Positions 15,086 through 64,000 of a DNA stretch of 64,000 nucleotides are shown in pieces. The notes below the pieces were generated by a model, which was given only the letters and a program-made list of their open reading frames with translations, searched no databases and had not been told where the DNA came from. The DNA lies in NCBI GenBank assembly GCA_032718475.1, contig JAUCBJ010007168.1:58386-122385 (forward strand), given 5' to 3'. A program made the position numbers and the translations under genes. The first letter of the stretch is position 1; each line of letters opens with the position of its first letter. This DNA is from Nemertoderma westbladi. Its lineage: Eukaryota; Animalia; Xenacoelomorpha.

Positions 15086-15705
15086 ATATATTTTAAACTG
15101 TAAATTCTATTTTATTTAAAGTTTAATGTATGTATATACACGTGATTTATTGTAAACTACTGTACAGAGTTAGACCATTTATGTTACCTAGGCAAGACAA
15201 TTTTATTATATAATTTCAAACATGTATTACCATCCATTAATTTACATAATTTACATAAAACAATGTAAAATAAATTACCGGTAAATGGTGATTTATATAT
15301 ATTATTTCAGTATTGTGCAGTATGTATTTTTTTATATGGGAAAAAATTCAATCAATCAAAAAAGGCTCCGTAATTGGAAGCCCAGGAATGTCACCACTAT
15401 ACCAAGCTGCGGCTTAGTAAAATATATGTTCAAATATAGATATGGTAATATATATATTTACTTATATGTATTTAGCTAGGCTAATTATGTAATGAACCCG
15501 TTTGATTTTATGAGTTTTATGCTTGGGTGGAGTCATCGAAATTTGTCATTTCAATGCTTGGGTCTATACAGTATACCCTCACCCTTTTCAAATTTATGCT
15601 TCCTTACAAGGCACTTTCACCCGTTAAACAATTGTGTTATATTTGCAAAGAGGAGCTGCGCAAAACAGAAGGATAGCACATCTGTATTATAAATAAGTTA
15701 CAATC

Positions 15706-17191
15706 TACGGTGGCTGAATGTGGCCAATTTAATTAATTTTAAAAATGGGAAATATAAAAAGAAATTAATGAAATATAATTCCTTTAAAACAGGAATTAAT
15801 CAAATATAATTCAACCAGAAACGGAAATTAATCAAATATAATTCAACCCAAAACAGAAATTAATCAAATATAATTCAATCAGAAACAGAAATTAATCAAA
15901 TATAATTCAACCAGAAACAGAAATTAATCAAATATAATTCAACCAGAAACAGAAATTAATCAAATATAATTCAACCAGAAACAGAAATTAATCAAATATA
16001 ATTCAATCAGAAACAGAAATTAATCAAATATAATTCAACCAGAAACAGAAATTAATCAAATATAATTCAACCAGAAACAGAAATTAATCAAATATAATTC
16101 AACCAGAAACAGAAATTAATCAAATATAATTCAACCAGAAATTAATCAAATATAATTCAATCAGAAACAGAAATTAATCAAATATAATTCAAATATTTTG
16201 GAGGGAAATTTAAAATACTGTCTCTGTGCAGTGCAGTAAATTGTCGTTCCCTTTTCAGTCTATCAGTGCAGTACTGCAGTACCGGTTGCCTGTAGCTGTG
16301 TAAGCTTAGTTCTGTGGTTAGTTGTTATTCTTTTAATCACTACAGCACTACTGACTACCGATCTACCTGATCCTCGTCATCCATTTTCAATAGACTATGC
16401 CTGCCTATAGGCCTACATCTTATTTCTTACCTACAGTACAGTTCTATATACAACTACTGAACTAACTAATCCTACGGAATTACCGGTATTTCTGACTTTT
16501 CTTATCTGCCGGGTTGGCCGTAGTCAGGTCGTATCGGTCTGTCGGTAGTCAGTAGTGATTAAAAGATTAACAACTAACCACAGAACTAAGCTTACAGAGC
16601 TACGGGCAACCGGTACTGCAGTACTGCACTGATAGACTGAAAAGGGAACGACAATTTGCTGCACTGCACTGAGACAATATTTTAAATTTCCCTCCAAAAT
16701 GTTTGAATTATATTTGATTAATTTCTGTTTCTGGTTGAATTATATTTGATTAATTTATTTTTGTGGTTGATTTATATTTGATTAATTTCTGTTTTGGGTT
16801 GAATTATATTTGATTAATTTATGTTTCTGATTGAATTATATTTGATTAATTTCTGTTTCTGGTTGAATTATATTTGATTAATTTCTGTTTTGGGTTGAAT
16901 TATATTTGATTAATTTCTGTTTCTGATTGAATTATATTTGATTAATTTCTGTTTCTGGTTGAATTATATTTGATTAATTTCTGTTTCTGATTGAATTATA
17001 TTTGATTAATTTCTGTTTCTGGTTGAATTATATTTGATTAATTTCTGTTTCTGGTTGAATTATATTTGATTAATTTCTGTTTTAAGGAATTATATTTGAT
17101 TAATTTATGTTTTAAGAAATAATATTTCATTAATTTTTTTTATATTTCCCATTTTTTAAATTATTGAAATTGGCCACATTCAGCCACCGTA
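15706..17191. mobile_element. Foldback non-autonomous DNA transposon, IS3EU-like (TAC..GTA ends, 6-bp TSD), ~650-bp TIRs containing 32-bp tandem arrays
   Basis: Ends TACGGTGGCTGAATGTGGCCAATTT / AAATTGGCCACATTCAGCCACCGTA; ACAATC at 15700-15705 and 17192-17197; unit aaattaatcaaatataattcaaccagaaacag repeated in both arms in opposite orientation. Confidence 0.88.
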
Positions 17192-23657: not shown

Positions 23658-23692
23658 TGTTCGCGCTTTTAGACCTTTAGCAGTTTAACCCG
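23658..23692 (-). repeat. Residual terminal 35 bp of the element 2 3' LTR
   Basis: tgttcgcgcttttagacctttagcagtttaacccg is identical to 37932-37966. Confidence 0.9.
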
Positions 23693-24917
23693 TAAAGCTA
23701 ATTCCTTCACCGCTTGGACTTGTTGCTGCAATTTGCGTTTCTCTAAACAATCGTAAGTTTCTTTTCCGATCTTTTGCCGAATAGCATCTAACGCGTTTCG
23801 TACAACGCTCTCCTCAACTTCCGTGACAGGTTGTATCGGGTTTAAACCGGGACGATTGTACGGGTTGAACGGCGATATTAGATGCCCGCGTCCCAATCCG
23901 GCTAGATAGGAAGGGCGAATATCTAGCAAGCCCACTACCGGAGTGCCACCGATTAATTGTTCGGGTAACAAAAGATCTTTAAATAGTGAGTACAGTTCAG
24001 GGGGATCCGTTATACTATTAGGATCAAGAGTCTGAGGTCTCACTAAGGAATGAGGAGGTCTGACCGAGTATTCCGGAACTCTGATCATGGGTTTATTTAA
24101 GGATCGTCTGAGTTGAGCGAGCGTAGGTGATACATTGAACAAGTTTCGCTCGAAACTCCCATAAGTATAACGAGTAAAACTGTGTTTAGCGCAACGTCTC
24201 CGCGGATGTTATGTCTTTCGGTTTGCTGGTTGGGTCTAGGGCATTCGTTGCAGTAATACCAAAGACGCACGTCCTGCAGATGAAACGCGGGTGATCGTTC
24301 TCCAGTTTTACAATATTCCTCCATCTGTTCGAAGCTATCTGGAACGACAGGTAGCGGTCGATCGGCGGTAAGATACATCATAGTGAAATAGAGCCGTTTG
24401 AGTTCTATCATAGGATCATGATGTATACCTTGAGGATATCGAGTTTCTAGATTTTGTTGGCTGGCGATGTTGAGATATGTTTCTCTCAAGAATTCCAGAT
24501 ATTCGTTGAAGTCGCTGCGTTTATCCGGCTCTTCAACGTCTTCTCTTTCGAGTCGGTTTCGAATAGAGTTCTCGTGTTCGATTCTCGTTTTATCGTTCCG
24601 ACTCCGATGGGTATGATATTTAAAGAGAACCATTTCCCTTTCGGTGTCTACATCGTCCGTATCGTGTAAATCGATAGGATGGCCAGTAGTTAAGAAGTCC
24701 ATATACGTACCATTACGATGCGTGTAGCGAGCGGTGAATTTTCTATAGTCCAATTCACGCGTGAGTTGCTCCTGGGACATTGGCGGTTCGATATAATGAC
24801 CATCGTCCTCTGTAGTAGTTGGACCAGCGTCGCCGCGTATCAAGCTATCAACAAACGCTTGTAACGGTAGAGGTATCGCTCCCTGATACCAAGATCATCT
24901 TCTATCAACTCAGTCAT
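23693..24917 (-). pseudogene. Accessory ORF2 of BEL element 2 (frameshifted; ORFs 24097-24843 and 23669-24142 are one gene)
   Basis: DFNEYLEFLRETY...DPMIELKRLYFTMMYLTADRPLPVVPDSFEQMEEY...RLWYYCNEC, then after a frameshift at ~24208-24194 RRCAKHSFTRY, in frame with 23669-24142. Plausible ATG at 24917 behind another frameshift. Confidence 0.85.
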
Positions 24918-25739
24918 AGCTGCTATATGAGTTTATCAATATTATAATTAGTTATAATTAGGCTAGCGGGCATCGCTGCCTACCCCTCACACCTCACGGC
25001 CCCCGGACAGCGCAAGATCCTCAGCGCCGATGTACCGTCGTCGCTGTGTTTTTCGCCAACGTAGTAGCTACACAACGACAACGATAACCAGCGCGAGTCA
25101 CTCCACTGTCCGTCCCAAGGGCTTAGATTTACTTCAGGTTCTTACTGCAGAGGTAGGGCTACTTTCACAACTGCGACTAGCTACTGTAAACACACTTTAG
25201 TAGTATCATTCACCTATAAACGCACAAATTCCACACAACTGTCACAAATTGTACACATTCGGGCAATTTGTCCGTTAGTCAAGTGCCTTCCAGAATGCCA
25301 CGTTATTATTATGTATCCTTGGATACTAGCAGTTTGCTATTTATTCCCTATGCTATTCAATGGGGTAAGCTTTCTATTGTTCTTTTAACTGGCTTCTAAT
25401 TCTAGCGTGGTTGTTGCTATGGTGACATTATGGAAAGCTAGCGGTAGAATTAGGGTAATTCCCATGCATACAGATCTGGGATGCTATTTAATAGTAATTC
25501 TTTAATTGTCAATATCCCCTTTATACATGATTTTATGAATTTTATCGGCTATTGACTATATATTGGAGATTCTCGCACACTAATACACTTAATAGGGTGA
25601 ATCTCCGCTCCCATGATCTATTAATTAATGGAATTTTGGGAATGTTATAAATTGTATAAAATGACAATTTATCAAATTCATTAAAAGAGATGAATTTAAA
25701 TTTATTCCCGTAAATTTTATTATTTAATATTAAAACAGA

Positions 25740-26105
25740 CACAATTTTATTCCAGAACATGTCTGGGGACTAGAATCCTTAATTCTATGAAATTTGTCTT
25801 TTTAAGAGTATCGGTAAGTGCTACGATATCTTAATCGACTAGAATTTTAAAGGATCTGAATTTTAACAGATTTGGATTTATAGATTTTCTAGAGTTAATT
25901 TGTAAGTATTCACTCTATGATATTTGTTTGACAGATTTTATAAATATTAAATTATTAATATTTAAGATGGGCACCGATTTATTCCAGAACTTGTCTGGGG
26001 ACGTTAACCACTGATTCTAAAATTTTGTCTTTCAAGTCTATCGGTGGGTGCCGCGATATCTTAATCGACTAGAATTACAGATGGTCAAAAGGTTTAACAG
26101 ATTTA
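25740..26105. repeat. ~120-bp diverged direct repeat (period 232) between pol and ORF2 of element 2
   Basis: attccagaac.tgtctggggac ... cgatatcttaatcgactagaatt starting at 25749 and 25981. Confidence 0.8.
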
Positions 26106-26622
26106 TTTTGCTTTTCACGCTACTGTTAAAGGGACATCACGCTACTATATGTATTATTTAATATACGGTATGAGAGCAATATCGCACGAAGCAATGTCAG
26201 TGAGAAGAGGCAAGTCGTTTCCAAGGTCTACCCAGAGCTTGGTTTAGCCGAGACACGAGGATCTGAACTTTGCATTCCTAATACTCTGCCTACCAATAAT
26301 ACTTGAATATAGTAGGAGCTTCATTGTACTTTAATAAGTACGGACATTTCATCTTACTGTAGTCACGTATTTACAATATGATACGGACAGTAAGGAAAGA
26401 GAAAAATAATTATTTCTCGCCATTGCACTAAACATATAATATAAGTAATTATGTAATAAAACACGAATATATATTGCACTAATGTACTAAATAATCGCTA
26501 AAATAACATTCTACTAAATAAAATTAAAGAAAACGATTATAATAAAATTACATAATAATACATACATAAATATAAAAATAATAAAAATATAAAATAATAT
26601 AGTCACACACCCACTCCAAACT

Positions 26623-29600
26623 TTACGTTAGGGAGTCCCTAGATGTTTGTTGAATTAGGGAGGTGGTCGTGGGAAGAAAATCTTGCCTTCCATAGTTTCC
26701 GGAGAGTTCTCTGTCTCTTTCCAGTAAACATGAACGACCAACTGGGCGATTGAGTTGTTGTGTTTCGAACACAATTCCAGGTTTCTTAAAGTTACGTCGC
26801 ATGACGACAAGTTCTACCGTTCGCACCAAACCATCATCTGAGATATGAGTCTCGATGATACGACCTGTCTGCCACCGCTTACGTGGAAGATCTGATTCCA
26901 CAATAAGGACCATGTCTCCGGCGCTGACGTTTTCTTGCTGCGCAAACCACTTAGTTCGAAGTTGTAGCGTAGGCAGATAATGTTTTTCGAAATGGTCATC
27001 AAAACGACGGGATAACAACTGCATAAGTTGCCAAGTTTGCCGGCAGTATTCGTCTCCGTCCGTGATTTCTGATCGTGGGAGCATGGCTACAGGTTTCTTC
27101 AGTAGGAAGTGCGCGGGTGTTAGCGCTTCCAGGGAATCGGGACTCGATGAGACTGGCATAAGCGGTCTCTCGTTGAGATAGGCGGCGATTTCCTCCATTA
27201 ACTTCCGCAAAAGTTCGTCGGTGAGATACGCGCGGCACGGCACTATAAAGTGAAATGCGGTCTTCACGCTCCTAATTAATCTCTCCCAACTTCCTCCCCA
27301 CCGAGGGGCGTCGGCGGCGTTGAAGGTCCAGCTAGACGCTGTTACCCTTAGCTGATCGTCCACCTGTCTTTGGTTCCAATCTGTGACGTAAGCTTTGATT
27401 TCATTGTTGGCACCAATGAAGTTCATTCCCTTATCAGATCTCACCGTGTTACTAGTTCCAAAGCGAGCGATCTATCGGCGTAAGCTCAGTATGAAGCTGT
27501 TGGTAGATAGATCGTTCACCATATCGAGATGGATAGCTCTACAAGTCATACAGACAAAGATGACACACCATCTCTTGACTATAGTCCTAGCACGATATAC
27601 TTCAATAGGGCCAAATAAATCCACGCCGGTATTAGTAAAGGGTGGTTCATAGAAGCTTACGCGTTCCCTAGGTAATTCTGCCTCTCGCTGTGTTAAAGGC
27701 CTACTGAATGCTTTCCTACAGGGTATGCAGTTCCTAAGAACTTGGTTCATAGCTCTACGGGGTTTATGAAAATAATAGCGAGTTCGAATTTCGCTAAGAA
27801 CTCGTTCTCTACCAGCATGGTAAAGCTTACTGTGAACATCTACAATCATCTTGATTTGTATTTCAAGATTTCTAATGAGTATGGGAAACTTAGTGTCAAA
27901 GGATAATGGAGCATTAGTTAGTCTTCCTCTAACGCGTATTAACCCATCTATCATTGTGCTAGAGAAACGATCCCTTAAGCGCATCTGTGGATTTCTCAAC
28001 AACAGAAAATACTTATCGGAATACTCATAGCATTGCAGGAGTCTCAGTATCTGCTTATTGGTTTCTTCATGCTCCTGGTAACTGATCTTTTCCTTCAGAA
28101 ATCTGTCTGATATCTTGTATTTGGGAAGATCTTTAACAACATGGACCTGCGCAGATGTCAGTGGAGCAGTATCACTAGCGATTTTCTTTCTGGAGTAATG
28201 ATAATGAAAACATCGCTTCAAATATGCAATGGCCTTACAGAGCCGATTCCAGGAGCTATAGTGATGTATCGCTCTTTGCAGGAGGGGTGAGAGTCCCTGC
28301 GAGACGTCTGGTGTTCCAGATTTCCAATCTCTCTGTCTGATTTCCACAACAGTCTTCTTTGTTGCTGGGAATTTTGGATCCAAAGCGTCGTCTCCGGAAA
28401 TGTGCAGTACAGACAGATCTATCACTGGTTTAAATAACTTCGATTTACTCGCCCGGGTTTTAGGTTTGACTTTCTCCGCTCCCTTGGCTTGTCTAATCTC
28501 AGCCGTGGTAAGATGAGGAGGCCATTCATCTTCTTCCTTGCTTAGGAAGTCGGGTCCACCTAACCAGTCTGGAGTATCTATCAGTTCTTGTGGAGTTGCT
28601 CCTCTGGAGGCGATGTCGGCTGGATTAATCGTCCCAGGGCAATGTCTCCATTGATCTATCTTCGTGCGACTAAGTATAATGGCTACTCTGTTGGTAGCGA
28701 AGACGCTGAACTTACAGACTTCATTGGTTATATACTCCAACACGAGTAAAGCATCGGTCCAATAGACAGTTTTCTCCAGTGGATAGTCGATCTGTTCTGT
28801 TACATTCCGGCCGATGGCTGTAGTGTATAGAGCCGCTTTTAACTCTGCTCGAGGAACTTTCAGCTTGTTGTTTATCAAAGCCTTAGAGGTAACCAAGGCG
28901 AGCTTAATTCCATCCGGAGTTTCAACCCTCAAGTAGGATACTATACCTATTCCCATGTTGCTGGCGTCTCCAAACACATGGAGTTGATAGGAATACGTGG
29001 GGAGAACGTGACCAAAATATGAACGGGAAATAATAAAGTTCTCGATGGAAGGTAGAGAATCTTCCCATTTCATCCAATTCTTTAGCAGTTCTCCCTTAAG
29101 TGGATCGTCCCATGAGTGGTTTTCAAGCCACATTTGTTGTACTAAACTCCGAGCAATCAATATAACTGGGCTAATAAATCCCAATGGATCGAAATAAGTG
29201 CTCAGGATACTTAGACAAATCCGTTTAGTTCGAATTGGATTATCTTGCTGTTTTAACTGGAAAAACAGGATATCTCTCTCCGTGTCCCATTTCAAACCAA
29301 GCGTCTTGGTTTCTGGAAGATTGTCTTTGATAAGGTCTAGATCTTTAACTCCTCGGTCTTCTACTGGGATCGATTCCAGAAATTCACTGGAGTTACTGGT
29401 GAATTTAGTTAATCGAAATCCACCTCTTTTCAAGCACTTTACCGTTCCCTTGGCGACATCAATGACTTCTTCCACCGATGGGAGGGATTTTAAATTGTCG
29501 TCTATGTATATATCCCGTTTGATGTTGTCGATAACCGCTTTAGAGAAGGCGTCCCGGTTGTCATCAGCAGTGGTGCTCACTACTGAGCAGGCGTTTGAGG

Positions 29601-32600
29601 AGCTCGAGATGATCCCAAAAGCCTGGATGGTCATCCAGTACTCCACTGGTTTCTGGTTGAGGTCTCCTTCAGGCCACCACAGAAATTGTAGGCTATCTCG
29701 ATCCCTATCCAGCGCCTTAACTTGTAAAAACATGCCTTCTAAATCCGAAGCAAAAGCGATCGAATATTGTCGTAATCTTAAGAGTATTCCCAACAAGGAT
29801 TGGAGTAAGTTGGGTTCCGCCAACAACTCTGAGTTAAGGGATTGGCCCATGTAAAGGGCGGAGCCGTCAAATACTACCCGGACTTCGTTGGGTTTACCGG
29901 GTTTGGGAACGTAATGATGTGTTAAATAGTACGTTCTCTCAGTTATGGGTGTTTCTTCCAGTACTCGCTCCGCATATCCCTTGTCAATGAATTTCTTCAG
30001 CTGGGTCTTGTACATCTCCTTCGCCGAAGCATTTGCCGTAAGGTGTCGATGTAGTTGCGCGATTCTCTTCTCCGCCAAGGGTCGGTTATTTATAAAATTG
30101 GGTTCTCTCCGTCGGAAAGGCAGGCCAATCTCATACCTACCTTGATCTTTAAGAAAACGTGTGGTCGTTTCCTGTATCTGCTTGGCTCTTTCTTCTTCTA
30201 CCGATAGGGCCTTATCGTAGGAATTAGGCTCTATAGCTTCTTGAGTAAAGAATCGTACGGCATGTTCATCGCAAGTCTTCGTTGTTGTAACGATCTATCA
30301 CTTCATTCAGTTCGTCGCTGTAATCGACTTGTCCCGCTGGATGGATGAGGTGACACAGGTTCACTTGGTTTTTCCAAGTTTCATTTTCCGTAAGGAGGTC
30401 GATGGTATTCTCCTCGTCGAATAGTTGATGAATATCGTCATTATCTGAGGAGTATGGTGTTCCCTCAGGTGTATCGTCTCCCTCACTGATTTCCTCTTCC
30501 CATTCACTCACCTGGTGGACTTGATCTTTAGGTGGCCTTTCCATGAGTGTCCTACGGGAAGGTCCAGTAAAGTACCAACCTACTCTAGTTCTTCCCGCAT
30601 AGGATTGCAGTGGTTGCGGTTGAGCAGGCCGTTTCTCTAATGTCTCCAACGCCTCATGCGCATTTTGGCCGATGAGTATTTGTACCCCTGGGTAGTCGGT
30701 GTTGAATCTAGGTATATCATGCTGCTGGGTGAAATCATCTTCATCCCAGTTATAAGGTTCCACTTGGCTGGTAGCGAAGTTCTTTATCGCCACCATTTTT
30801 ACTGACCTTACACTGTGTTCTCCTAGTTTATCCTGGGGGGTGGACAACGCGCCTACATAGTAGTTTGTAGCTACTGTAGATTTCCAAACCTGCATAATTC
30901 CTGAAAGGTTCAACTTAGTTCGGAACTTGGGTTGTCCAGCAAAAATGTCTTTGGCTAGTTCTTTGTCGATGAATGTTCCTGTGCTGCCGGAGTCAAGGAG
31001 GGCGTTCACTATATAGCTCTTTTGTAACCCGTGGACTCTCAACTGCACTACGGGAAATTCTCGGATTCCTACGTTGGAAGTTGGCGCTTTCCAAGATGGT
31101 TGTCGATCAGGAATAGTTAGGGGGAGCTCACTATCAGTTTCAGTCTCATACGTAAGTGCTCGATACACTGCGGTGTTTATCATATAGCAGGATTCGTTTT
31201 CGTCGGAGAATTTGTCCGTATAAAATCCTTCCATCGCAGAACTGTGGTCAGTGTCGTTCACATCACTGAATTGGACATGTAGTTCGGACTCACTTACCTG
31301 ACTCGGGCTGTTTCTTTCAAATTCGGTGTGCAACAAGATATGATGTTTCGCGCCGCACTTAGCGCACCTAGCATCTGAGTAACAGGACCGCCGTTGGTGT
31401 CCTCGTCTGAGACAATTATAACACAACCGCTTATCCCACATGACATCACGTCTATCCTTAAGGGATTTCTTCAAGAATTCATCACATACACTTAAACGAT
31501 GGGGCCCGTCGCACAGCGCACATTTTGGTTTGATGCTACTTACTTTAACTTGGGTAGTGTTGTGCACACTCGTTCTTTCCTCGGGCTTTCTTCCATGAAT
31601 TATCTTAGGAGACGTAGGAGGAGTTTTTGTTACCTGTTCTCTCCTGTCACTTGTTCGAGACTTAAATTTACTTATGTCTTTAGGTGTTTTGTTGACATAG
31701 TAAGACCTTTTGGTGTCTTTCCCGCTGTTCTCCTCTTGAGAGGTTTGGCATTCGCCGTTGTCTGTATAACACACTGGTGTTACCTTTCTCCTAGAAACGG
31801 GTTTTACACTCACCTTATTTTCCGGTGTCTTCTCTCGGGACTGCTTTAGGAGCTGTAATTTCACCTCTCCATTTAAGAATGACATGAGATCATCCATGGT
31901 AGGGTCTCTTTGTTGTTGTTCCATCATATATAGAACTCTTTTGTCCCAACGAGTACCCACTCCACCCTTTGGCAAGGTAGATGCTACAGCTCCAATAACC
32001 ATAGAACTCTGATATTCATGAGACTTACCTAGCCAATCTAATTGTCTACAGATCTCCTGGATCTCATCGGAAAATTCTATAATCCCGCTGCTAAGAAACT
32101 TTCGGGGCGCTACCAATTTCGCATACAAATACCTAGCTATGTTAGTCCTATTACCATACCTGATGTTCAGTGTATCCCAAACTTGTCTTAATCCATCTGG
32201 ATGTCCAATAAACTTTAACGCCATTAACTTGGGAGATCCTTCCAAGCACTCGATGAGGAATCTAAGTTTCTCTCCGTTAGATAGTATGTTATCTTTATAA
32301 TATTCATTAAAAGGTAACCATTTCATCTCATCTCTGTTGAACTTGACGATCTCTCCCACCTTTACCGCTTGACGGGCTTCGGTTCTAGCCATTTGATGCG
32401 TAAAACTTTCTTGGGCCATCGTATTATTTAATATCGAGTTATCGGTATATAAATTTCTCGGATTATGATCAGGTCTATATGGAATATCATTATCAACAGG
32501 TTTATAATTACCCTTTATAGGGTTTATTATAGGAGTTTCTACTTCACTAGCAGTATAGATGCGTGTAGGCTCCACACCTTGCGCATGAAATACTTCAGAC

Positions 32601-35012
32601 CTAACAGGTTGACACATTGTTACAGGGGGTGGTGGTATGGTATACCCCTTTGTATATTTACTAATTTATCGCGTTCTAACGCGATACTCTGCTGCACTTC
32701 TTGCAGTTCTAACCTACCCTCTCTTACTGTTCCCTTTAACTGCTGCACAGTCCCTTCCATTTCTCGGACGTGCTGGGAGGAACGTATGCGCTGTTCCTCC
32801 AATTGTCCGAGCAAGAGATCCATCCACCGCCGTCCCTCATCCACCCACTCGACTGCCGAAGCGGGAGCCGCCAACATAGTAGCGGGTAGACGAGGGACGA
32901 CGGGCGATAAATCGTTGATGTCTCGCTCGGCGTCCAAGACTGGGACTGTTTCTGCAGCTATTCTATTGGGCACAGGTTATTTAGTACTGTGCAAAGGGAA
33001 TTTAGAGTTAGGTTCTGGAAGTACAGGGGTCTCTATCACAGAAGGGGTGGCTTCAAGAACAGGCCCAATTATTTCAGGCTCATCTACTATAGTAGGAAGT
33101 CTTTCTACTCTAATAGTTTGGTCTGTGGGTTCTGTACTACCTAAGTCTACACTAGCTAGTTGCCTTCTCACAGCTGGGGGCAAATTAGGCAATTTCTGAC
33201 GGTGGGGTGTTCTTCTACGTCTGCTGGAACGAGATCTATTTCCTCCGCCTTCAGGATCTGTTGTATCGCCTTCATCAGATGATGTAAAGCCCTGTCTCTC
33301 GGGAGTAGATCGACCTATCAGCTGCATCTGACTAGCTGTTATATGTTTATTTATGTAGTCTTGCTTCTCTTGAAGATTTTCCAACTCTAGTTGGGTTGTC
33401 TCTTCAGATGCCTTCCGTTTTGCTTCTACCACTGCCTCTGCCGCAGTTCTTTCTGCTTCTGCCGCTCCTGCTTTTCTTTCTGCCTCTGCCACTGCCGCTT
33501 TTCTTTCTGCCTCTGCCACTGCTGCTTTTCTTTCTGCCTCTGCCACTGCAGCCTTTCTTTTCACTTCTGCCGCTGCCGCTGTTGCTGCCTTTCTGTCTTC
33601 TATTTGTTGTTCTTCTATTTTTTTCTTCCTGTTCCCTAACGATGCGGATTCTTTCATCAAATTTAGCTCGATCCGCTTCTAACCTTTCCGCATCTAAAGA
33701 GTCTAGCACAAATTTGGCTTCCTCACTATTAGGGTGAAGTCCAGCTAGCCGTCTCCTTAACTCTTTGTCACCTATAAATCGTTGATAGTCTGACAGATAG
33801 ATGTCAATGGCATCCTTCTTCGGAGGTTTCTCTGATGTCGGTTCGCTTTCCACTTGAGAAAAGGTAGCGTCTGTTGATTCTCCGTGGGTTGAGCGCTCAG
33901 TTAGCTGAATTTTCCATTGGGTTGTTCCTTGGACTTTAAGACTCACTCGTTGGAACCAAGTCTTTACGGCAACTTGCAACGACGTGTCTTGGCTTCTCTT
34001 CAAGGCTTCCTCAAAGGCCGAAAGGATTAGTCTGATTCTTAGAATGCGTTCTCGAACTTGATAAAGCAGCTCTCCCTGCTCTTGAGGTCCGTGAGGTTGT
34101 TGAAACAGGTGTTCCTCTAATCGCTCCAAAGAGCTGAAGAATCCCTGGACATATCCTGCTGCCGACCTCTTCCACACAGCTGGATCTCGAGTGTCCCTTA
34201 CTACTCCCATCCTATATAAGTCCTCCCAGGCAGCCTCTTCAAGGCTTCCTCAAAGGCCGAAAGGATTAGTCTGATTCTTAGAATGCGTTCTCGAACTTGA
34301 TAAAGCAGCTCTCCCTGCTCTTGAGGTCCGTGAGGTTGTTGAAACAGGTGTTCCTCTAATCGCTCCAAAGAGCTGAAGAATCCCTGGACATATCCTGCTG
34401 CCGACCTCTTCCACACAGCTGGATCTCGAGTGTCCCTTACTACTCCCATCCTATATAAGTCCTCCTAGGCAGCTTTCGATAAGTTAAACGGGAGTCCGGG
34501 TCCGGGAAAGTTCCATTGCTCCTCGACAATAGACCTTAATTCCTCCATCATGTATACTGCATAACTCTCCCTGGCCGATCGCTAACTTCTTGCCCAATCG
34601 ATTTGATGTTCTTCCACAGCAATCAATACTCTCGTGAGTACAGCCTCAGGAAGAATGAGAAGCGGATCAGAATAAACTGCTTCTGCCATCTTTGCTCCGA
34701 TCTCCGGTGTCAACTCTACAGTATCTGTACTACTGGAGCGATCGGACCGCTGAGAAATAAGTTCTCGGCTCGGGTGTTGCTGGTGCTGCTGTTTAACAGC
34801 TGCCTCTTGGTCCCGCTTGACTTGAGCCCGCATGCCTATAATAGACCTACGGTGCTTGACTAGCCTAGGGTCTGATACTACTACTAAAGGGATGACCTTT
34901 CTTACAGTAGGAGGGGACTTGGACTTGGTCTAGGATGTTCTACACTCTTGTCTGAGTCGCAGACTGTTTTTTCTAGCAGACTATCTGACAGATTTTGCTT
35001 TGTGTCAGCCAT
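26623..35012 (-). pseudogene. gag-pol: BEL element 2 gag-pol, broken by stops and frameshifts
   Basis: ATG at 35012 (MADTKQ...CDSDKS, cf. element 1 MSDKQ...CDADKS); knuckles CALCDGPH, CYNCLRRGH, CAKCGAKHHILLH; LLDSGS; IYIDD; FGDAS; GVDLFGP; SDKGMNF; WERLIRS, spread over about 9 ORF pieces. Confidence 0.93.
33996..34473. repeat. 239-bp near-perfect tandem duplication in element 2 gag
   Basis: caaggcttcctcaaaggccg at 34001 and 34240; one visible mismatch. Confidence 0.92.
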
Positions 35013-35048
35013 GTTTGATTGTACAGTTGAATGCCTACTACTATAACA

Positions 35049-35409
35049 GTAATAACTACTACTACATGCACACATCTCCAACCAGACACTATATAACATT
35101 GGAGGTTTCTCATTGGTTCCCCCAAGCTTGACACTAGAACAAAATCGCCTCCGCTTTGCAGGACATTGCTTTCGCCGTGAGGACCAGCCAGTGCATAATC
35201 TTGTACTTTGGCAGCCTCATGGAGTGAATAAGCATGGTGCACAGCCCATGACTTTCTTGAGACGCATCTTAAAGGACACTGGCCTTAAAGATGCTGATGA
35301 TCTAACAAATGTCATGGGTGATAGGGAGTTGTGGCGGTGCAATTTTGTTGACAAGCCGGCACAGCATTCTTAAAAATGCAGCTGCAATGCAGCATGCCGA
35401 TCCTAGTAG
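35049..35409 (+). mobile_element. 5'-truncated RTE-clade LINE insertion just upstream of element 2 gag
   Basis: RLRFAGHCFR...NLVLWQP...DRELWR; 3' end matches ~54830-55095; TSD TACTACTATAACA at 35036-35048 and 35410-35422. Confidence 0.88.
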
Positions 35410-36856
35410 TACTACTATAACAACAGTTAAAGCAAGACTAGTAATTCAATATCAACTGTAAGCCTAGTGATCAATTACAATTACTGATACCGTTACTCAA
35501 TGTAACGCGATATATATAGTATTAGAATACCGGTATACACTTATAGTATATATATAAGCACTGCCACAAACTATGTTTAGTCACAGAATACCGGTATATA
35601 ATTTCAGCCTAAATTTATATAGATATATATAATAAGCCGACCTCAAATACCGGTATACAGCATACACTTATAGTATATATAAGTATGATTAAAGACCAGA
35701 GTTAATTACAGAATACCGGTATATAATTTCAGCATAAATTTATATAAATAAATATAATAAGCCTACTATAAATACCGGTAATGTCAATTATTTTATAATA
35801 ATTGAATTTCTGAATTTAAAGGTTACTTTCTTTTACTCTATTACTGTTATCAAGCAGTAGCCCATCTGCTATTAAGACCTAATTGATGTATAACAGGCCT
35901 ACTATTTTATAAATCGGTTTGAGTTGATTTATAATATATTTATATATACCCGTATAATGGGTTTTGTCAATATTGAAACAAATGTTATTATTTCTAGTTA
36001 AGGGGGTCACTACACAGAAGCTAAACGCTCTCAGTGAAGTGCTACTTGTTGGACACTAAAACAAATAATTCTACTTGACTAAGTAAATTATTACTACAAA
36101 TTACGTACAATTACAGGGTGAGATTACAATCTCTAAATAAACACAAAAAATTACAAGTACAAATTTTAGGGTAATTTTTACAGGGAATTCTACAAACCAG
36201 TCTAACAAGGAGTTAGAATTTCTGGTTATTACCAACGGGCAGGATACTACGGTATTTGAAAATAATTAAGCAGTAGTAAATACACTGTGTTGTCCAGATA
36301 AGAAATTACCACCGTCTGACGACTTATAGTCTTTTTGCTATACAGCACTATAAGTACTACGTATGTACCCGGAGTGTCTCTACCTACCTGGAAGTTAATT
36401 ACCGCAGCCTACCATAGCTAACGTGCCTATTAACCACTTTACAACACAAATATACTGCCTACAAACTAATTACCTTCGGAAAGTACTGTACACTAAACCC
36501 TAGATTAGGTACAAATACTTGTATAACAAATAACCAGCAGTTAAATATACTTGTACAGCTAAAGGAACCACGGTATCTGCTGGAGTGACTAGCGCATAAA
36601 ATCACCAGTCTTTACCTACGCCGAGCAGCCCTGATGTAGTACCGGGGTTAATTTAACTATAACGGTATGTATAACAAGCACAATTACTGAAGGAATAAAC
36701 TTGGGGAATTTGAAGGTTGCGATTACTTGCATAAACTCTGAATCATAAATATTAGACTACTATTAGACTTATTACTACACAAACAAAATACAGACCAAAT
36801 GCTGGCAGATTACTGTCAGGCCTAAATAAACTACAGTATATGCAGACTCCGAAGTT

Positions 36857-37588
36857 GTGGGGCGAGCCACGAAGTTGGTTTGCATAAATTGACCCACCCC
36901 CTAACAGTGTCAATTCGATAAGGCTCTGCCAACTTCGTGCTGCGCGAAGTCCCCACTTCGTGTTAGTTAGTATGCGTTCTAACCTAGTAGTACGACTTAT
37001 TCTTTCGGGGAGGGGGGGGGGTGATTTACCTTACTACACTGGCTGCCCCCACGTTCCTAACTAGCACTTTATCGGACCTACACTCTACACAAAGTGGGGA
37101 CTTCGCGCAGCACGAAGTTGGCGGAGCCTTAGCGAATTGACACTGTTAGGGGGTGGGTCAATTTATGCAAATAGTTGTCGTTGTCACGTTGGCCTTCTAG
37201 CGGCAGACTGGAGAACTGCAGATGGATCATTGAAAGTCACAGCTAATGGTCTAATACATATCTGCCAAGTTTCAGCTTAAACGGATTAAAAGCAAAGAAA
37301 TGGGAGGGCATTTAATGTTTAGACATGTGGCCCTCTAGCGGGAGACCATTGCACTGATGGTGTCTGAAAGTCTCTCAAAAATCTCAACTTTTGCTCATAT
37401 TGATACCTACAAATTTTCAACTTGGCAGCTTTAAATCCGACAAAGTTATTAGCATGTCAAAATCGTAACGACGACGACGACGACGACAACGACGACGACG
37501 ACGACGACGACAACTATTTGCATAAATTGACCCACCCCCTAACAGTGTCAATTCGCTAAGGCTCCGCCAACTTCGTGGCTCGCCCCAC
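36857..37588. mobile_element. Two oppositely oriented copies of a Helentron/HINE-like or MITE element (internally deleted 36857-36956; full 37094-37588)
   Basis: Long subterminal inverted repeat cacgaagttggcggagccttagcgaattgacactgttagggggtgggtcaatttatgcaaa, terminal hairpin cttcgcgcagcacgaag and (ACG)n microsatellite at 37468-37510. Confidence 0.75.
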
Positions 37589-37931
37589 ACACACTGCAAT
37601 CTCTCGACTCAACAGCAACCAGACAACAATCAGCCTACAAATTATTTATACAATCTGAGCAGGCTTACACGCCTTCTGCTCAATATTACTCTTACAGATA
37701 AATAAAACTGACAGAAGTAAGTAAAATCCCAATAAAAACCAGGGCTGCAGTCCCTGATTAAATATCAAACCTACGGGTATATAATTATCAAAATCTAATA
37801 ATACTGATGTACCTGTACTGCTGTAAGTACCGGTTCTGGTAGTTATGTAGTTAGGCCTACAGGTTACCGGTCGACCGGTACTTTCGACTTTATTGCCTAC
37901 GTTGCAATAAAGAAACTAAAATAACTGTTAT

Positions 37932-39178
37932 TGTTCGCGCTTTTAGACCTTTAGCAGTTTAACCCGCTAATTTTAGGTGTCTTCTAGTTTATAAATCGAC
38001 TTTAGCCTATAACAAGTATTTGTTGCATATAAGATATAAAGTTACACTAGCCGAAGCCAGCCTATGCGCGACCATTCACCCACTGTTAAGGGAGACTGGA
38101 TTCGGAGGCTCTGACCTTATTGCGGTGTAGACTTACGGTACTATTCGATTGATCGTTAATATATAATCTCTGACAAATATTATTTATTTTCGGGAAATAT
38201 TAACAGTTCCTTTAGGACGTGGCGCTCTAAGTATGTAAACAGAGTTATGACTTACACTAAACACAATGGGATGGCTAGTGATTTTCGTATAAAGCGCATT
38301 CTTTAGGAAATGCTTTGTTATCTGTCACACTCATGCACACTACCGCACACTGCTGCACACTGATCTGCTGACCTTCACTGAATTTGATCATATATAAAGA
38401 GAATAGCAACCGACAAATGTAGGGATTATGAAATAGCATTCAATTCACTCAAAAACCACTATAATGTAAGTCGCAATTGCTACAGGTAACCGGTCTCTCT
38501 AACTATCATATACTATATATACTATATATACTATATATATATCTTGATATACTATCAAGAAGATTGGGGTTTTATGATCATTTATCGATATTCTCCAAAT
38601 ATAACAACATATCCATCAACTTCTAACAATTAATAACCGACAGTGAATAGCAGTAAAATAATGCGGTGAAAGGTATGTATAGTATTATATATTATGGTTT
38701 GCTGAGCCGTGTCAGGTGTCAGGTAAGATAACAGTTATACGTTCCTATAATCAAAGCCGTCGAATGTTTTGCTAAAGTCTGAAACTAAGAATAATTCCAA
38801 AGCCGATGTTCTAGGCTCAGGAAAAAGGTAAACAAAGACCGTCATGCATTGCGCGATTTCCCATAGGCTTCTGTACAATATAAAATCAAAATCGCCCTGA
38901 TTGGTCGAGCGAGCCGAACAAAGAGAGTTAAAAGCTCCACATTGACATCAAATCAGCTGATAGATTTCGTCATCGGAACTATACTGTATTAAGAGTATTT
39001 GGCGCATTGCGGCATAAAATGGCTTGTTATGTCCGCTAAAGTACACATACAGAAAAAATGGCTTTTTATGTCCACTAAAACACCTACACAGTAAGAAAAC
39101 GGCTTTTTATGTCCGCTAAAACACCTACAGAGTACTTTGCGGGGAGAATGACTAGTTATATCCGCAAAAGCCTTTACA
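37932..39178 (-). repeat. 5' LTR of BEL element 2 (1247 bp)
   Basis: Sense TGTAAAGG...CGCGAACA; homologous to 23658-23692 and 62912-64000; ~38-bp repeats at 39015-39130; CCAAT ~38900. Confidence 0.9.
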
Positions 39179-41789: not shown

Positions 41790-44610
41790 GGTGCGGCTAC
41801 ACCAACACCCCCACACTCCCCCCCCCCCCACCCTCTCTCCGGCTGGCTGTTGCAGAGTAGATCAATCAATTCAAAGTACAGTAGATCAATGTTAACCAGA
41901 TAACCAATTGAATTTACCAGAAAATAAATATAATACAACAATAATGTTAAATAAAGGTTTATAAAAATGTTTTTTTTCCTCCAATATTCTCAGGAGTTCT
42001 TCTTATCTACAGTTAGTCGCCACTGCCATACCGCTCTCTGTGCCATACCGCTCTCTGTGCCATACCGCTCTCTGTGCCATACCGCTCTCTGTGCCATACC
42101 GCTCTCTGTGCCATACCGCTCTCTGTGCCATACCGCTCTCTGTGCCATACCGCTCTCTGTGCCACACCGCTCTCTGTGCCATACCGCTCTCTGTGCCACA
42201 CCGCTCTCTGTGCCATACCGCTCTCTGTGCCATACCGCTCTCTGTGCCATACCGCTCTCTGTGCCATACCGCTCTCTGTGCCATACCGCTCTCTGTGCCA
42301 TACCGCTCTCTGTGCCATACCGCTCTCTGTGCCATACCGCTCTCTGTGCCATACCGCTCTCTGTGCCATACCGCTCTCTGTGCCATACCGCTCTCTGTGC
42401 CATACCGCTCTCTGCCGTTACGATCAACCACAAATATCAATTCCTGCGTATTCTCGAAATAATACCTCCATATTATTGTATAACTTTATCCTGACTACCA
42501 ATACTCCACACTTTAAAACTGAATTTCATATATTTTTCAATTTCACCATTGAAATTTACAGTTGGAATGTTTGACTTTATTTCTTTACTGGCGTTGAGCA
42601 TTTGTAAATATTTTCTAATCTTCTGGCATGATAAGAATGGCTTGGCTTTGTACGACATAACAGTACGACATAACATAACAGTATGTGGTATTGATGTGAA
42701 GCCAAAACCAATAAAACCCGGTTTATAGATTCACTTTCGCGGTGACAGCGCGGTGGTGTCGCCTTCGCATTTTGAACGTACTTTGAATTTGACCGCAGCG
42801 CTAACACCGTGCTGTGACCAAAACGCTGTCATTATGACCAGCATTGCGAAGTGTCTGTAAAACCCACTTAAGACTCTAAGGAATGTAGAGAGAATAAGAT
42901 ATCTAAGTAATTAGTTTTAATAAGGTGGTCGCAAACCAAAAAATTTTAAATTGCTGAATTTTTCATAAAACATCTCATGGAGCAAAATTAGATGTAGATT
43001 CTAAATATCAAGGTCACATGACCTGAATCTCAAGCGATCAAAAGTTATGACAATTTGGTTTATTTCTTTATGACAATGTTTCGAGGTTGTCCGTTATTTT
43101 TCAAATTTTGGCCCAAATTTTTAAATATTTTTTTTCTTATTTCATAATCAAAATTTATCCATCTTTTTTTAAAAATATATACACCCCATGATCGGGGTAA
43201 ATGAGTGTTTAATAGTTATAAATAAAATTAAAATTAAAACAACATGTTAGGGACTTTCGCACAACATAAGGGAATTCACTCCAACATAGTTTCACACAAT
43301 TCACAACATAGTTTAAAATATCACGTTAAAATTGACTTTAAAATTTCACAGAATTGGATAAATAATTTAAAGAGGGACAGTTGGGGCAGTCTAGCACGAA
43401 CGTGGTACAGGTGATGGGCTGAGCCGCCGCTAAAGCTGCATAAACACTAATCCGCTCGATCGTGGAATGTTTCAGAGTTTGTGCATAAGTTGGAGTGCCA
43501 ACCATTGGCCGTAGTTCTACTGTAGTTCTAGTTGATATGGCGGTTCTGATTTCCTCCGTCCTGTTGCTTCTTTCCGAGAGGAATTTATAAACGCCGATTC
43601 ATTTAAAATTATCCTGGTTTATAAAATTATCATAACGGTCTCGTTGTGGCAATTTCCGTATAAAGCAACATTAACTATCTTAATTAGTAATTTATTCTAA
43701 TTAGCCCTTTGACAATATCACACCATTACTCATTGTATACAGTCCTATTCCTACAGTAGAATGTGCATTGTTTGTACAGTAGCTAGTTAGTTAGTAATAC
43801 GTTCAGCTGTAGTAAGTGAATGTAGTAAATTGGATATATATATTGGACTTGTTTCAAGATTTATGTGTGTTACTCATTTATTCATTATAATAGTATAGTA
43901 TTGTAAAAACGCCCCATTTTGTTTCTTTGAAACTTCATCCTGTCTTTATGACAAACTCATTTGACTTCGGTCAAACCAATTTACGCAATACTCGTCTGTA
44001 TTGTCTGTAGTCTTCAATTATTTCGAGTTTGAAGACGTTCGGTGTTTTATCAATAATTTCATCACAGAGTGTTTTTTTCATTTACGGCTCTGAGAGCCAC
44101 TGAAGCAGTTTTTGATGGTCCTAGCATCCGTTTAACAAATCTTGCCTTAATTATATCGAGTTCTATTGTGGGTTACGGTTAGATATTTTCCTATGACAGG
44201 GATCCCCCTGTCACAAGAAGGTAGAATTTCATATGGAAGATTTTCATACCAGTAACAACTAATAAAAGATGGAGATTCGAAAGGCATTCCATAGCAGCAA
44301 ACGCTTTACGCTACTTCCGCATTACATTGGGTTGGAGAGTCACTCCTAAATATTCATATTTATTACAGATCTCAATGAAATTCCCATCATACAGTAATTT
44401 AATTTATCAGAGTTGTTGGCAAGCCGGCCACCTTCCTGAACTTTATAATTTTCGTTTTGTTCAGATTTAGATACCGTTTTGATTACACCAGTGATGTATT
44501 GCGTCTAAACCATTCTGTATTTCGCGGGGATCTTGACGGCTGATGAAATTTGTCGGTGGACACACGAAAGATCTGATATAAATATGATGAAACACATAGG
44601 AGAGAAGGAG
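41790..44610 (+). repeat. Diverged local duplication, copy B
   Basis: Collinear with 20430-23657 plus 39184-39890; lacks the BEL and Kolobok-like insertions. Confidence 0.85.
42024..42416. repeat. 17-bp minisatellite x~23
   Basis: Unit tgccataccgctctctg. Confidence 0.97.
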
Positions 44611-53600: not shown

Positions 53601-55110
53601 TCCCAGATATTCCCATTGGCGATATCTCCTTTGCAGAAGTGAAGGCTGGTGCAAAGAGCATTAAGACCAATCCTGCCAGTGGAGTAGATGGTGTTCCACC
53701 TGAGGTTTTTAAAATACCTGAGTGTTTAAAGCTCATCTATCCCATCATAGTAGACATGTACAGAACAACAAGAGTCCCACAAAAAATGAAAACAAATAAG
53801 TTGGTGCCAGTTCCCAAGAAGTGCAACCTAACACTCTGGTTCTTTTCGGGGAATCTCATTGATCTCGATTGCTACAAAGCTATACAATAGAATTCTATTA
53901 AATCGCATCAGGGATCCAATTGAGAGACTGCTCCGTGGAAATCAGAATGGGTTCCGTAAAGGTCGTCGGACCTTTTAGCCCATTTTGGCACTTAGAAGGA
54001 TAGTTGAAGAGTTATCATAAAAGAAAGACAGGCATATGGCTGTTATCTTTGTTGACTTCTTCGGAAGTCAACAAAGTTTGATTCAGTCTCTCGCTCACGT
54101 ATGTTCAGCATAGGCCTACTTTCATTAAATGGGATTCCTGATGAAATTATTGCAGCAATCAGATCAGTATACGATGGTTCGACAACATTTGTGTCTACTG
54201 TTGATGGTGATACAGAACCATTTGAAGTATTATGGGGAGTCCTTCAAGGAGACACACTTGTGCCATTCTTGTTCATAATTGTGGTTGACTATGTTCTACG
54301 CATGTCCTTAGATCATCATAATGATGATGGGTTGATGGAAACTCCACCTACTGGCTCCAGAAGTCGAGGAAAACCTGCCAAGTACCTAACTAATCTAGAC
54401 TTTGCTGATAACTTAGGAGTACTCTCAGAATCACGAGAGGGAGCCCAACGGCTCCTCAGCTCATTAGAACAGGCTGCTTCTAGTGTTGGTATTTTTATTA
54501 ACTCCAAAAATACCAAAATTTTACAGTTAACTTTGAAAGTCCTCAGCAATTCTCTGACCGGATGAGCATAAGCTCAAATGATGGTATGCTTGAGCAAGTG
54601 GTCGACTTGTGAGGACCTTCGAATAAGTAGGGAAAGGCCTGGGCATCCTTGAACGGGCTTTCCAGAATTTGGAAGTCACATAGAATTCATCGGAAACTTG
54701 AGGTCCGATTACTTAGAGCAGCAGTAGTTCCAGTAATACTCTATGGGAATCCATGCTGGGACCAGATCTCTGGATGGCACATTCACAAGAATGCTACACA
54801 GGGTTTTCTGTGTCAAGTACAATGCACTCATCACCAACCAGACACTATATAACATTGTTTACATTATTATAACATTTGCTTTGGCGGCCTCATGGAGTGA
54901 ATAAGCATACGTGACACCCCATGACTTTCTTGAGACGCATCTTAAAGGACACTAGCCTTGAAGATGCGGATGATATAGCAAATATCACGGGTGATAGTGA
55001 GTTGTGGCGGCGCAATTTTGTCAACAAGCCGGCACAGCATTATAATATCTATGTGATATATATATAATGCAGCTGCAATGCAGCATGCCGATCGTAATAG
55101 TAATATATAG
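50660..55110 (+). mobile_element. Near full-length degenerate RTE-clade LINE (APE endonuclease + RT); 5' boundary approximate
   Basis: APE: VGIQQHR, ISNRII, LGDFN, KTQIDHVL. RT: GVDGVPPEVFK, NQNGFRKGR, GVLQGDTLVPFLFIIVVDYVLR, LDFADNL. Many stops and frameshifts. Confidence 0.9.
51203..52010. mobile_element. Merlin-like MITE (808 bp) inserted in the RTE 5' region
   Basis: TSD CACAATTG at 51195-51202 and 52011-52018; TIR GGCTAGAGTTCCGTATGTGCCAACATTTTC / GAAAATGTTGGCACATACGGAACTGTTCCC; GG..CC ends. Confidence 0.88.
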
Positions 55111-62911: not shown

Positions 62912-64000
62912 TGTTCGCGCTTTTGAAGACCTTTAGCAGTTTAACCTGCCAAAATTTATATGTCTTTTAGTTAATTAAAACACCTTTAGCATACGACAAT
63001 ATTTTATGCTAATAAACAAAACATTAACCGAAGCCAGCCCATGCGCGATCATTCACCCGATGGATCTACACCCGGGAGGCTGAATTCGGCTGCTTAAATT
63101 TTATTATTGCAGTGTAAGGTTGCAGTGTAAACCTACTGTATTATTCGATTGATCGTTAATAATTAATTTCTGACAGATATTATTGGCTTTCGGGAAATAT
63201 TAACAGTTCCTTTAGGACGTGGCGCTCTATCTATTTAAACAAAACTAGGACTTATACTAAACGCAACGATACTGCTTATGATTAAAGTATAAGGCGCATT
63301 CTTTAGGAAATGCTTTGTTACCAATCACAATCATGCACACTATTCTGCCGACCGTCAGTAAATTTGATCACACATAAAGAGAGCAGCAATTGACTCATGT
63401 AGGGTCTGCTAAATAACATTAGATTCAATACACATCACATTGATATAAATCGCAATTGTTATATATAGCCTGTCTCTCTAACCTGTAGTGTATCAAGAAA
63501 ATTGGGAATTTTGGGTGATTTATCCGTATTCTCCAAAGGGCAATAATTCATCAACAAATAGATACAATTAATAACTGACGGTAAATAACAGTACAAACAA
63601 TATAATTAATAAGTAAAGTTCGGAAGAATAATATGATTACCAGTGAGTTAGTTAGATAGGTCGGATAACAGTTATACTTTCGATAATTTAAGCAGTTTTA
63701 CTAGAGTTCTTCCCAAAAGCCGGTGTTATGGCGAAAAATGGGAACACAACAACAGAATCATATAAAGAATCATATGACTACATAACTATACGAGGATACC
63801 AACTACCCTTATTCCCCGAAGCTCCCGTCCAACACAGAGGATGAGCATACAGATTAGGAAATTCAGTTCAGTAGCTCTGGGATAGGTCAAAATCAACGCC
63901 CACTCAAATTCTATTGGCCGATACGGACAGCAGGGCTGAGGCAACCTCCCTAAGCTGGTTGGCCGATCGAACAGAACCCAGATACCTTCGTACAGCCCAT
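62912..64000 (-). mobile_element. Diverged LTR of the element 2 family (solo or 3' LTR; runs off the window)
   Basis: tgttcgcgcttttgaagacctttagcagtttaacc, ccgaagccagcc.atgcgcga, ttcgggaaatattaacagttcctttaggacgtggcgctct and other blocks collinear with 37932-38930. Confidence 0.9.

Follow-up and report, generated by a model that had tools for sequence, protein, structure and literature searches.

Probable self-priming of reverse transcription in a marine clade of BEL/Pao retrotransposons, with primers predicted to be assembled across an LTR intron in most families

Background

In Tf1 the first 11 bases pair with the PBS (primer-binding site), and the RNase H cut falls between bases 11 and 12 (PMC7175516), while the PBS begins with ATAAC (PMC11042837), as given in the available portions of these two papers. 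Self-priming has been described for Tf1 and Tf2 of Schizosaccharomyces pombe, for Tj1 and for the Tf1/sushi group of Ty3/gypsy chromoviruses, and it has been predicted for the plant element Tcn1 and the copia element TAR, according to the accessible parts of five sources (PMC6317226, PMC4600332, PMC5341516, PMC6934838, PMC3601003). As far as these parts go, the described elements share the absence of a tRNA PBS and the presence of about 11 LTR nucleotides complementary to the sequence that follows the LTR. Concerning plants, the prediction for Tcn1 (gypsy) and TAR/Houba/Osr-1 (copia) was made from a complement of at least 10 nt to the first bases after the LTR; since only unbroken complements were sought, by the account in the available sections of PMC6317226, a primer split into two pieces would have been missed.

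For Belpaoviridae the ICTV gives an 18-nt PBS for tRNA-Arg or tRNA-Gly and tRNA-primed replication (PMC8742986). A term search of the accessible text of a BEL/Pao survey (PMC3118150) and of the Sinbad paper (PMC554778) found primer, PBS and tRNA unmentioned. Neither a self-primed BEL/Pao element nor a splice-built primer was found reported in the literature listings searched, which took in few subscription journals, and a prior remark may exist. What we add here is an intron-less family defined by its target-site duplication, together with a test on 35 loci with cross-family controls.

Loci and data sets

The window (the whole stretch of DNA that was analysed, 64,000 nt) holds two related elements, here called element 1 and element 2, and no tRNA gene was found in it. 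We gathered 83 related loci from metagenome and MAG contigs with a pol alignment; 69 homologues were found, nearly all with PF05380. In 36/83 loci a terminal repeat flanked the coding region at either end, and the 47 loci with no terminal repeat within the contig were left out. One locus (L069) was dropped, its 33-nt repeat not being at the LTR, so that 35 were analysed. They were divided into a first set of 13 families plus element 2, whose LTR ends were mapped by the second LTR copy, a second set examined after the idea had been formed, in which the LTR end was inferred, and a third set of leftover partial LTRs. Some of the loci (L046/L050, L007/L008, L061/L062/L068 and L031/L027) come from the same host or family, and locus counts therefore overstate independence; statistics on sites, distances and helices were based on 21 independent families, including element 2. 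Four of the loci, L080-L083, are BEL/Pao elements on contigs filed in four bacterial MAGs, where they most likely represent host DNA binned with bacteria.

Boundaries and classification of element 2

The limits of element 2, from 39178 (TG) to 23658 (CA) on the minus strand, follow from the flanks, which overlap by TTGGC on a paralogue of the target at 43326-43645; this paralogue is uninterrupted and contains TTGGC only once, and it represents the empty site for the 5-bp duplication at 39183-39179 and 23657-23653. The 5' LTR terminates in ...GCGCGAACA at 37932, and the same LTR end recurs at 23658, the end of the element, and at 62912, in a diverged LTR that is 73% identical to the 5' LTR over 599 nt (Table 1). 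Only the last 35 nt of the 3' LTR were kept and the rest is missing, a point absent from the initial annotation. In the simplest reading element 2 would be an old copy that lost most of its 3' LTR. A special replication mode with split terminal repeats, in which the 35 nt would be what the two ends have in common, was rejected, and deletion was preferred because a diverged long LTR copy exists elsewhere in the window with no PBS after it, the basis of this choice being that one copy. AATTAGC is found just upstream of the 35-nt LTR end at both ends of element 2, as expected of a microhomology deletion.

Table 1. Features of element 2 and of the related LTR in the window
Feature	Coordinates	Strand	Basis
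Element 2, whole BEL/Pao copy, 15.5 kb, decayed	23658..39178	-	TG...CA ends, TTGGC duplication, empty-site paralogue, Pfam
5' LTR, 1247 bp	37932..39178	-	left end abuts target duplication; right end common to 23658 and 62912
3' LTR remnant, 35 nt, 100% identical to 5' LTR end	23658..23692	-	
Gag-pol remnants, five frames, with stops and frameshifts	26623..34249	-	
Extra ORF 3' of pol, with a homologue in element 1 (552-1)	24097..24894	-	BLASTP
Predicted primer-binding site ATAACAGTTAT, offset 0 from LTR end, no TGG	37921..37931	-	sequence, host contigs
Predicted self-primer ATAACTGTTAT, unbroken (no intron)	38728..38738	-	perfect complement of 37931-37921
Possible distal helix arm, pairing with 37916-37911 beyond a 2x4 internal loop	38741..38746	-	duplex energy
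Sequence pairing with the distal arm, on the 3' side of the PBS	37911..37916	-	duplex energy
CCAAT box, probably promoter-like, some 160 nt upstream of the primer	38900..38904	-	sequence
Diverged LTR of the element 2 family, either solo or a 3' LTR, followed by unrelated sequence and not by a PBS	62912..63761	-	alignment

Element 2 had been recognized as a BEL element from its letters alone, and Pfam bears this out: DUF1759, Peptidase_A17, the integrase zinc domain (Integrase_H2C2) and DUF5641 were found in this order in the remnants 34249-26623. The Pao peptidase/RT-RH region, DUF1759, DUF5641, an integrase placed after the RT (gag and pol domains in the order PR-RT-RH-IN), TG...CA LTRs (the 3' one reduced to 35 nt) and the 5-bp duplication are all as in Belpaoviridae. 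Element 2 differs from that family in its length, 15.5 kb against 4.2-10 kb, in its extra ORF and, together with its marine relatives, in the absence of the 18-nt tRNA PBS for tRNA-Arg or tRNA-Gly (PMC8742986): no TGG was present in element 2 or in 24/24 relatives. Judged by these sequences, the tRNA-PBS description of the ICTV does not hold for this marine clade.

A post-LTR site and its complement inside the LTR

It had been proposed that element 2 has no tRNA PBS, and indeed ATAACAGTTAT, which lacks TGG, directly follows the LTR end at 37932. The perfect 11-nt complement on the same strand inside the LTR, ATAACTGTTAT, was likewise confirmed, and it is also present in the diverged LTR (63675-63665). 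Element 2 therefore carries the Tf1-type signature, i.e. no tRNA PBS and an LTR complement of about 11 nt to the post-LTR sequence, and in this it is also like Tcn1 and TAR/Houba/Osr-1, which differ in having plant hosts and in belonging to other superfamilies (PMC6317226, available sections). Concerning the 14-mer around the complement, which had been called invariant amid divergent flanks, the identity stands (63677-63664), and the upstream 346 nt, which are 60% identical, contain no longer perfect run; however the 14-mer is not uniquely conserved, since the LTR holds runs of 42, 27, 20 and 20 nt further downstream. One of these parts of the LTR, that most covered by host contigs, contains a 42-nt block (38229-38188) identical in both LTR copies. 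A CCAAT...GGGCG...TTGATTTT tract recurs in the diverged LTR.

The primer of element 2 is unbroken, with no GT-AG intron inside it; a spliced alternative was also sought in its LTR and rejected, the best match being only 8-9 nt.

The same pattern in related loci

TGG was not found after the LTR in any of the 15 loci with a mappable LTR 3' end, and it was likewise absent from the 8 nt that follow the LTR in element 2 and in all 24 related loci (first and second sets) whose LTR end was placed. We then counted perfect complements between each post-LTR sequence and its own LTR. When canonical splice sites were allowed, a complement of at least 10 nt was present in 12/14 members of the first set, compared with 3/180 cross-family pairs and 0/14 controls taken from the 3' flank; with any GT-AG intron the figures were 13/14 and 7/180, and without splicing only 4/14 showed such a match. 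An own-LTR complement was present in 10/11 loci of the second set (17/106 cross-family controls) and in 7/10 of the third, one of them doubtful (5/90 controls). Altogether a perfect complement of 10-15 nt was found in 29/35 loci, in 22 of them only across a GT-AG intron inside the LTR and in 7 unbroken. Four analysed loci (L070, L081, L014 and L051) gave no match, and a fifth (L082), outside the 29, has a spliced match with one mismatch.

The post-LTR sites vary, with 19 distinct 10-mers among 21 families, each matching its own LTR, and from the comparisons in the three sets it is evident that the post-LTR sequence covaries strongly, across families, with its LTR-internal complement. In relatives the LTR and the paired site are 0-5 nt apart; the site opens with GT or AT in 20/21 families (background 14%), and the AT of element 2 fits this rule. 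The inference of the initial annotation, that the element primes itself, is thus supported both by the absence of TGG in 24/24 relatives and by this covariation. Self-priming is likely a property of the whole clade, given that 29/35 loci possess their own complement and none of the 24 has TGG.

Predicted introns in the LTRs of relatives

In several relatives a short unbroken match began right 3' of a pyrimidine tract and AG, and the match length rose to 11-15 nt once one intron in the LTR was allowed. The predicted introns are 66-366 nt long, with near-consensus donors (GTAAGT, GTAAGC, GTGAGT or GTACGT) and YAG acceptors after a pyrimidine tract; only 4-9 perfectly paired nucleotides precede the donor, and the exon junction lies 4-8 nt from the primer 3' end. 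In most families, then, splicing of an intron inside the 5' LTR would be what assembles the primer, a pattern absent from the initial annotation. Element 2 belongs to the minority with an unbroken primer, most likely through intron loss, the direction of loss being our reading.

Sequence upstream of the cut would be copied from the 3' LTR, and survival of an intron therefore requires its removal at the 5' LTR together with its retention at the 3' LTR; we assume that one RNA undergoes both, losing the intron from its 5' copy while keeping it in its 3' copy. Splicing of both copies would presumably give rise to an intron-less family like that of element 2. With moderate confidence we favour a broader model, in which tRNA-independent priming would be normal and ancestral in this marine BEL/Pao branch, the spliceosome would build the primer by removing the LTR intron from the 5' copy while the 3' copy keeps it, splicing would both license reverse transcription and stop the 3' copy from priming, and intron-less families would have arisen repeatedly through splicing of the 3' copy and loss from both LTRs.

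The LTRs of L046/L050 and L047 have a second strong donor upstream of the primer-forming one, which in L046/L050 follows a TATA box by about 50 nt, an arrangement that suggests a pair of introns in the LTR and transcription starting well upstream of the primer.

Proposed priming mechanism and start of the RNA

In the family of element 2 the primer of minus-strand DNA synthesis is likely the element's own RNA and not a tRNA. Pairing is predicted in the transcript between the 11 nt at 38738-38728 and the 11 nt that directly follow the 5' LTR; by analogy with Tf1, the RNase H of the element would cleave immediately 3' of this helix, near 38728/38727, and the resulting 3'-OH would be extended by reverse transcriptase into U5, yielding, if Tf1 is followed, a strong-stop DNA of about 800 nt. 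In most families the primer would be made ready by splicing of the 5' LTR intron, element 2 being among the minority for which this step would not be needed. For this clade we infer the transcription start, splicing, pairing in vivo and cleavage. Compared with Tf1/sushi elements, whose membership rests on a Ty3/gypsy chromovirus RT and integrase, element 2 has BEL/Pao domains, of another superfamily, and a primer about 800 nt from the LTR end, and most of its relatives have an intron-split primer, which is unmentioned for Tf1-type elements in the portions of the sources available. Element 2 likely works like Tf1 without being a member of the Tf1/sushi group.

Folding of the 860-880-nt leader is consistent with this pairing. 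The helix was predicted with a probability mostly of 0.9-1.0 when the fold started between 38738 and 38760 (0.8-1.0 from 38746 or 38760), falling to about 0.54 when it started at 38800. A possible distal helix brings the predicted duplex to -16.4 kcal/mol, compared with -10.1 for the core; it is not significant for element 2 alone, 3/20 swapped arms doing better, and is marginal family-wide (permutation p 0.04).

These data bear on whether self-priming follows the strict Tf1 geometry, with an RNA that starts exactly at 38738 and its first 11 nt as primer. The paired stretch is exactly 11 nt at offset 0, a CCAAT box lies about 160 nt upstream, and the first five letters of the PBS, ATAAC, are those of Tf1 (PMC11042837, available part), a likeness that may be coincidence, as element 2 is the only one of 21 families to start so. 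However no canonical TATA, as had already been remarked, is present within 120 nt upstream of the primer, the distal helix, itself weak, needs at least 8 more nucleotides at the 5' side, and in relatives the 4-9 paired nucleotides before the donor would make an extremely short first exon if the RNA started there. We consider the strict geometry unlikely. The weak distal helix and the exon-junction primers of relatives suggest instead that transcription may set in somewhat upstream of where pairing begins, unlike the exact start of Tf1.

If self-priming by the element's own RNA is true, it reaches a third LTR superfamily, the ICTV description of Belpaoviridae is corrected for a widespread marine clade, and it is explained why such BEL/Pao elements look devoid of a PBS; a testable annotation rule would be to look across the LTR intron. 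A splice-made primer would moreover link reverse transcription to intron removal that depends on position, a control point that we did not find described for LTR elements, and this BEL/Pao clade would presumably stand outside silencing by 3' tRNA fragments. Intron-less families like that of element 2 offer a natural comparison for the purpose of the LTR intron.

Other explanations of the 11-nt pair

The two 11-mers could instead be unrelated to priming, either a palindromic motif acting at the DNA level, such as a site bound by a protein, or an AT-rich word that arose by chance or duplication, the real primer being something else. The initial annotation had cautioned that the 11-mer is near-palindromic, and we found it to be a full odd palindrome, ATAAC-W-GTTAT, AT-rich, so that the primer "complement" doubles as a direct repeat with one mismatch and only the middle base separates the two; this base is complementary, not identical, which speaks against a repeated motif. 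This complement was present in 11/5000 dinucleotide shuffles of the 1247-nt LTR, and one of 11 nt in 30/5000 when offsets 0-5 were allowed. The primer is also unusually far from the LTR end, 796 nt compared with 62-203 nt in 20 relatives, and longer conserved runs exist elsewhere in the LTR. On the other hand the pair is the only rule-conforming one of at least 10 nt in 36901-39178, besides the inserted inverted repeat, and it falls exactly at the LTR edge, while the sites of relatives are non-palindromic, family-specific and match only their own LTR. Because the 11-mer of element 2 is palindromic, the case for self-priming from this copy is suggestive, not strong, and its weight rests on the relatives; with these included, a DNA-level motif or chance word is quite improbable.

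A host tRNA, half-tRNA or other small RNA pairing with the post-LTR sequence would agree with the tRNA-Arg or tRNA-Gly primer given for Belpaoviridae (PMC8742986) and with the half-tRNA priming of copia lineages mentioned in the accessible sections of PMC6317226. However the absence of TGG means that no intact tRNA 3' end could pair, the 19 different sites found in 21 families would call for a large variety of primers from the host, and the match of each site to the LTR junction of its own element would be left unexplained, so that we regard a host primer as highly improbable.

The last explanation, that a normal TGG-type PBS was lost by deletion from a copy that is old, with broken gag-pol, insertions in the leader and most of its 3' LTR missing, is already largely refuted and retains hardly any probability, as contigs from 4/4 host runs cross the LTR/PBS junction, one of them with 0 gaps over 37852-37950, no junction insertion is among the variants listed and no relative has TGG.

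These contigs came from four public runs and were placed on 37700-38480 only (3536, 6306, 1832 and 51 pieces), numbers that indicate a very large family. Because they span the junction without a gap, no tRNA site appears to have been deleted in element 2; the possibility that other copies might have a TGG-type PBS found no example either in same-family copies among host contigs or in relatives. Neither a substitution in 37921-37931 nor an insertion at the junction was among the variants listed for the host contigs. In some of them 1-3 nt at 37916-37918 are left out, in or at the edge of the distal-helix loop, and a subfamily (one loose-end row, 7 contigs) differs at 37923, position 9 of the PBS, breaking the palindrome; its primer end falls outside the covered region. 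The LTR-end pattern of element 2 had no match in metagenome or viral contigs, and viral contigs yielded no relatives.

Phylogeny and element 1

A quick maximum-likelihood tree of the RT-RH region was built with the two elements of the window, 20 scored families and animal proteins. Elements 1 and 2 are sisters (support 98) inside a clade of 32 rows (support 100), which holds all 20 scored families on the tree and marine animal proteins, with insect BEL/Pao apart. Families with an unbroken primer are scattered among the spliced ones, for instance L048 with L055 (99); the scatter fits repeated intron loss and does not prove its direction. Element 2 shares only 41-43% protein identity with its nearest readable relatives, and its closest relative is element 1 (44% at the amino acid level).

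That no equivalent of the 11-nt pair could be found in element 1 was confirmed by two scans of its 5' region, one strict and one allowing one G-U, which gave only AT-rich low-complexity matches; the LTR of element 1 (11613-1216; upstream 15700-11600) was not delimited, and its gag and pol frames are open. A tRNA-like stretch at about 14150-14075 and a CCAAT/TATA cluster at about 14000-13860 are found upstream of it.

Extra ORFs and other features of the window

The extra ORFs of element 2 (24894-24097) and element 1 (552-1), both on the minus strand, are homologous by BLASTP (35% over 100 aa, E 5e-12) and have in common a CxxC near the end. No relatives of this ORF were found in Pfam, in the protein database or among the 83 loci, and it probably is a lineage-specific accessory gene placed after pol. 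A strong splice-donor motif is present on the minus strand in both LTR copies (GTAAGT at 38136, GTAGGT at 63136), 200 nt before the LTR end, and might allow the extra ORF to be expressed from a subgenomic RNA in which the PBS is skipped.

The leader of element 2 is interrupted by an inverted-repeat insertion (37577-36879) and by a dispersed repeat (35419-35206), of which another copy lies at 54879-55109. Elsewhere in the window, a long inverted repeat at 15691-17179 consists of two 32-bp tandem arrays that face opposite ways, beside an ORF with a fibrinogen-C domain (17931-17251).
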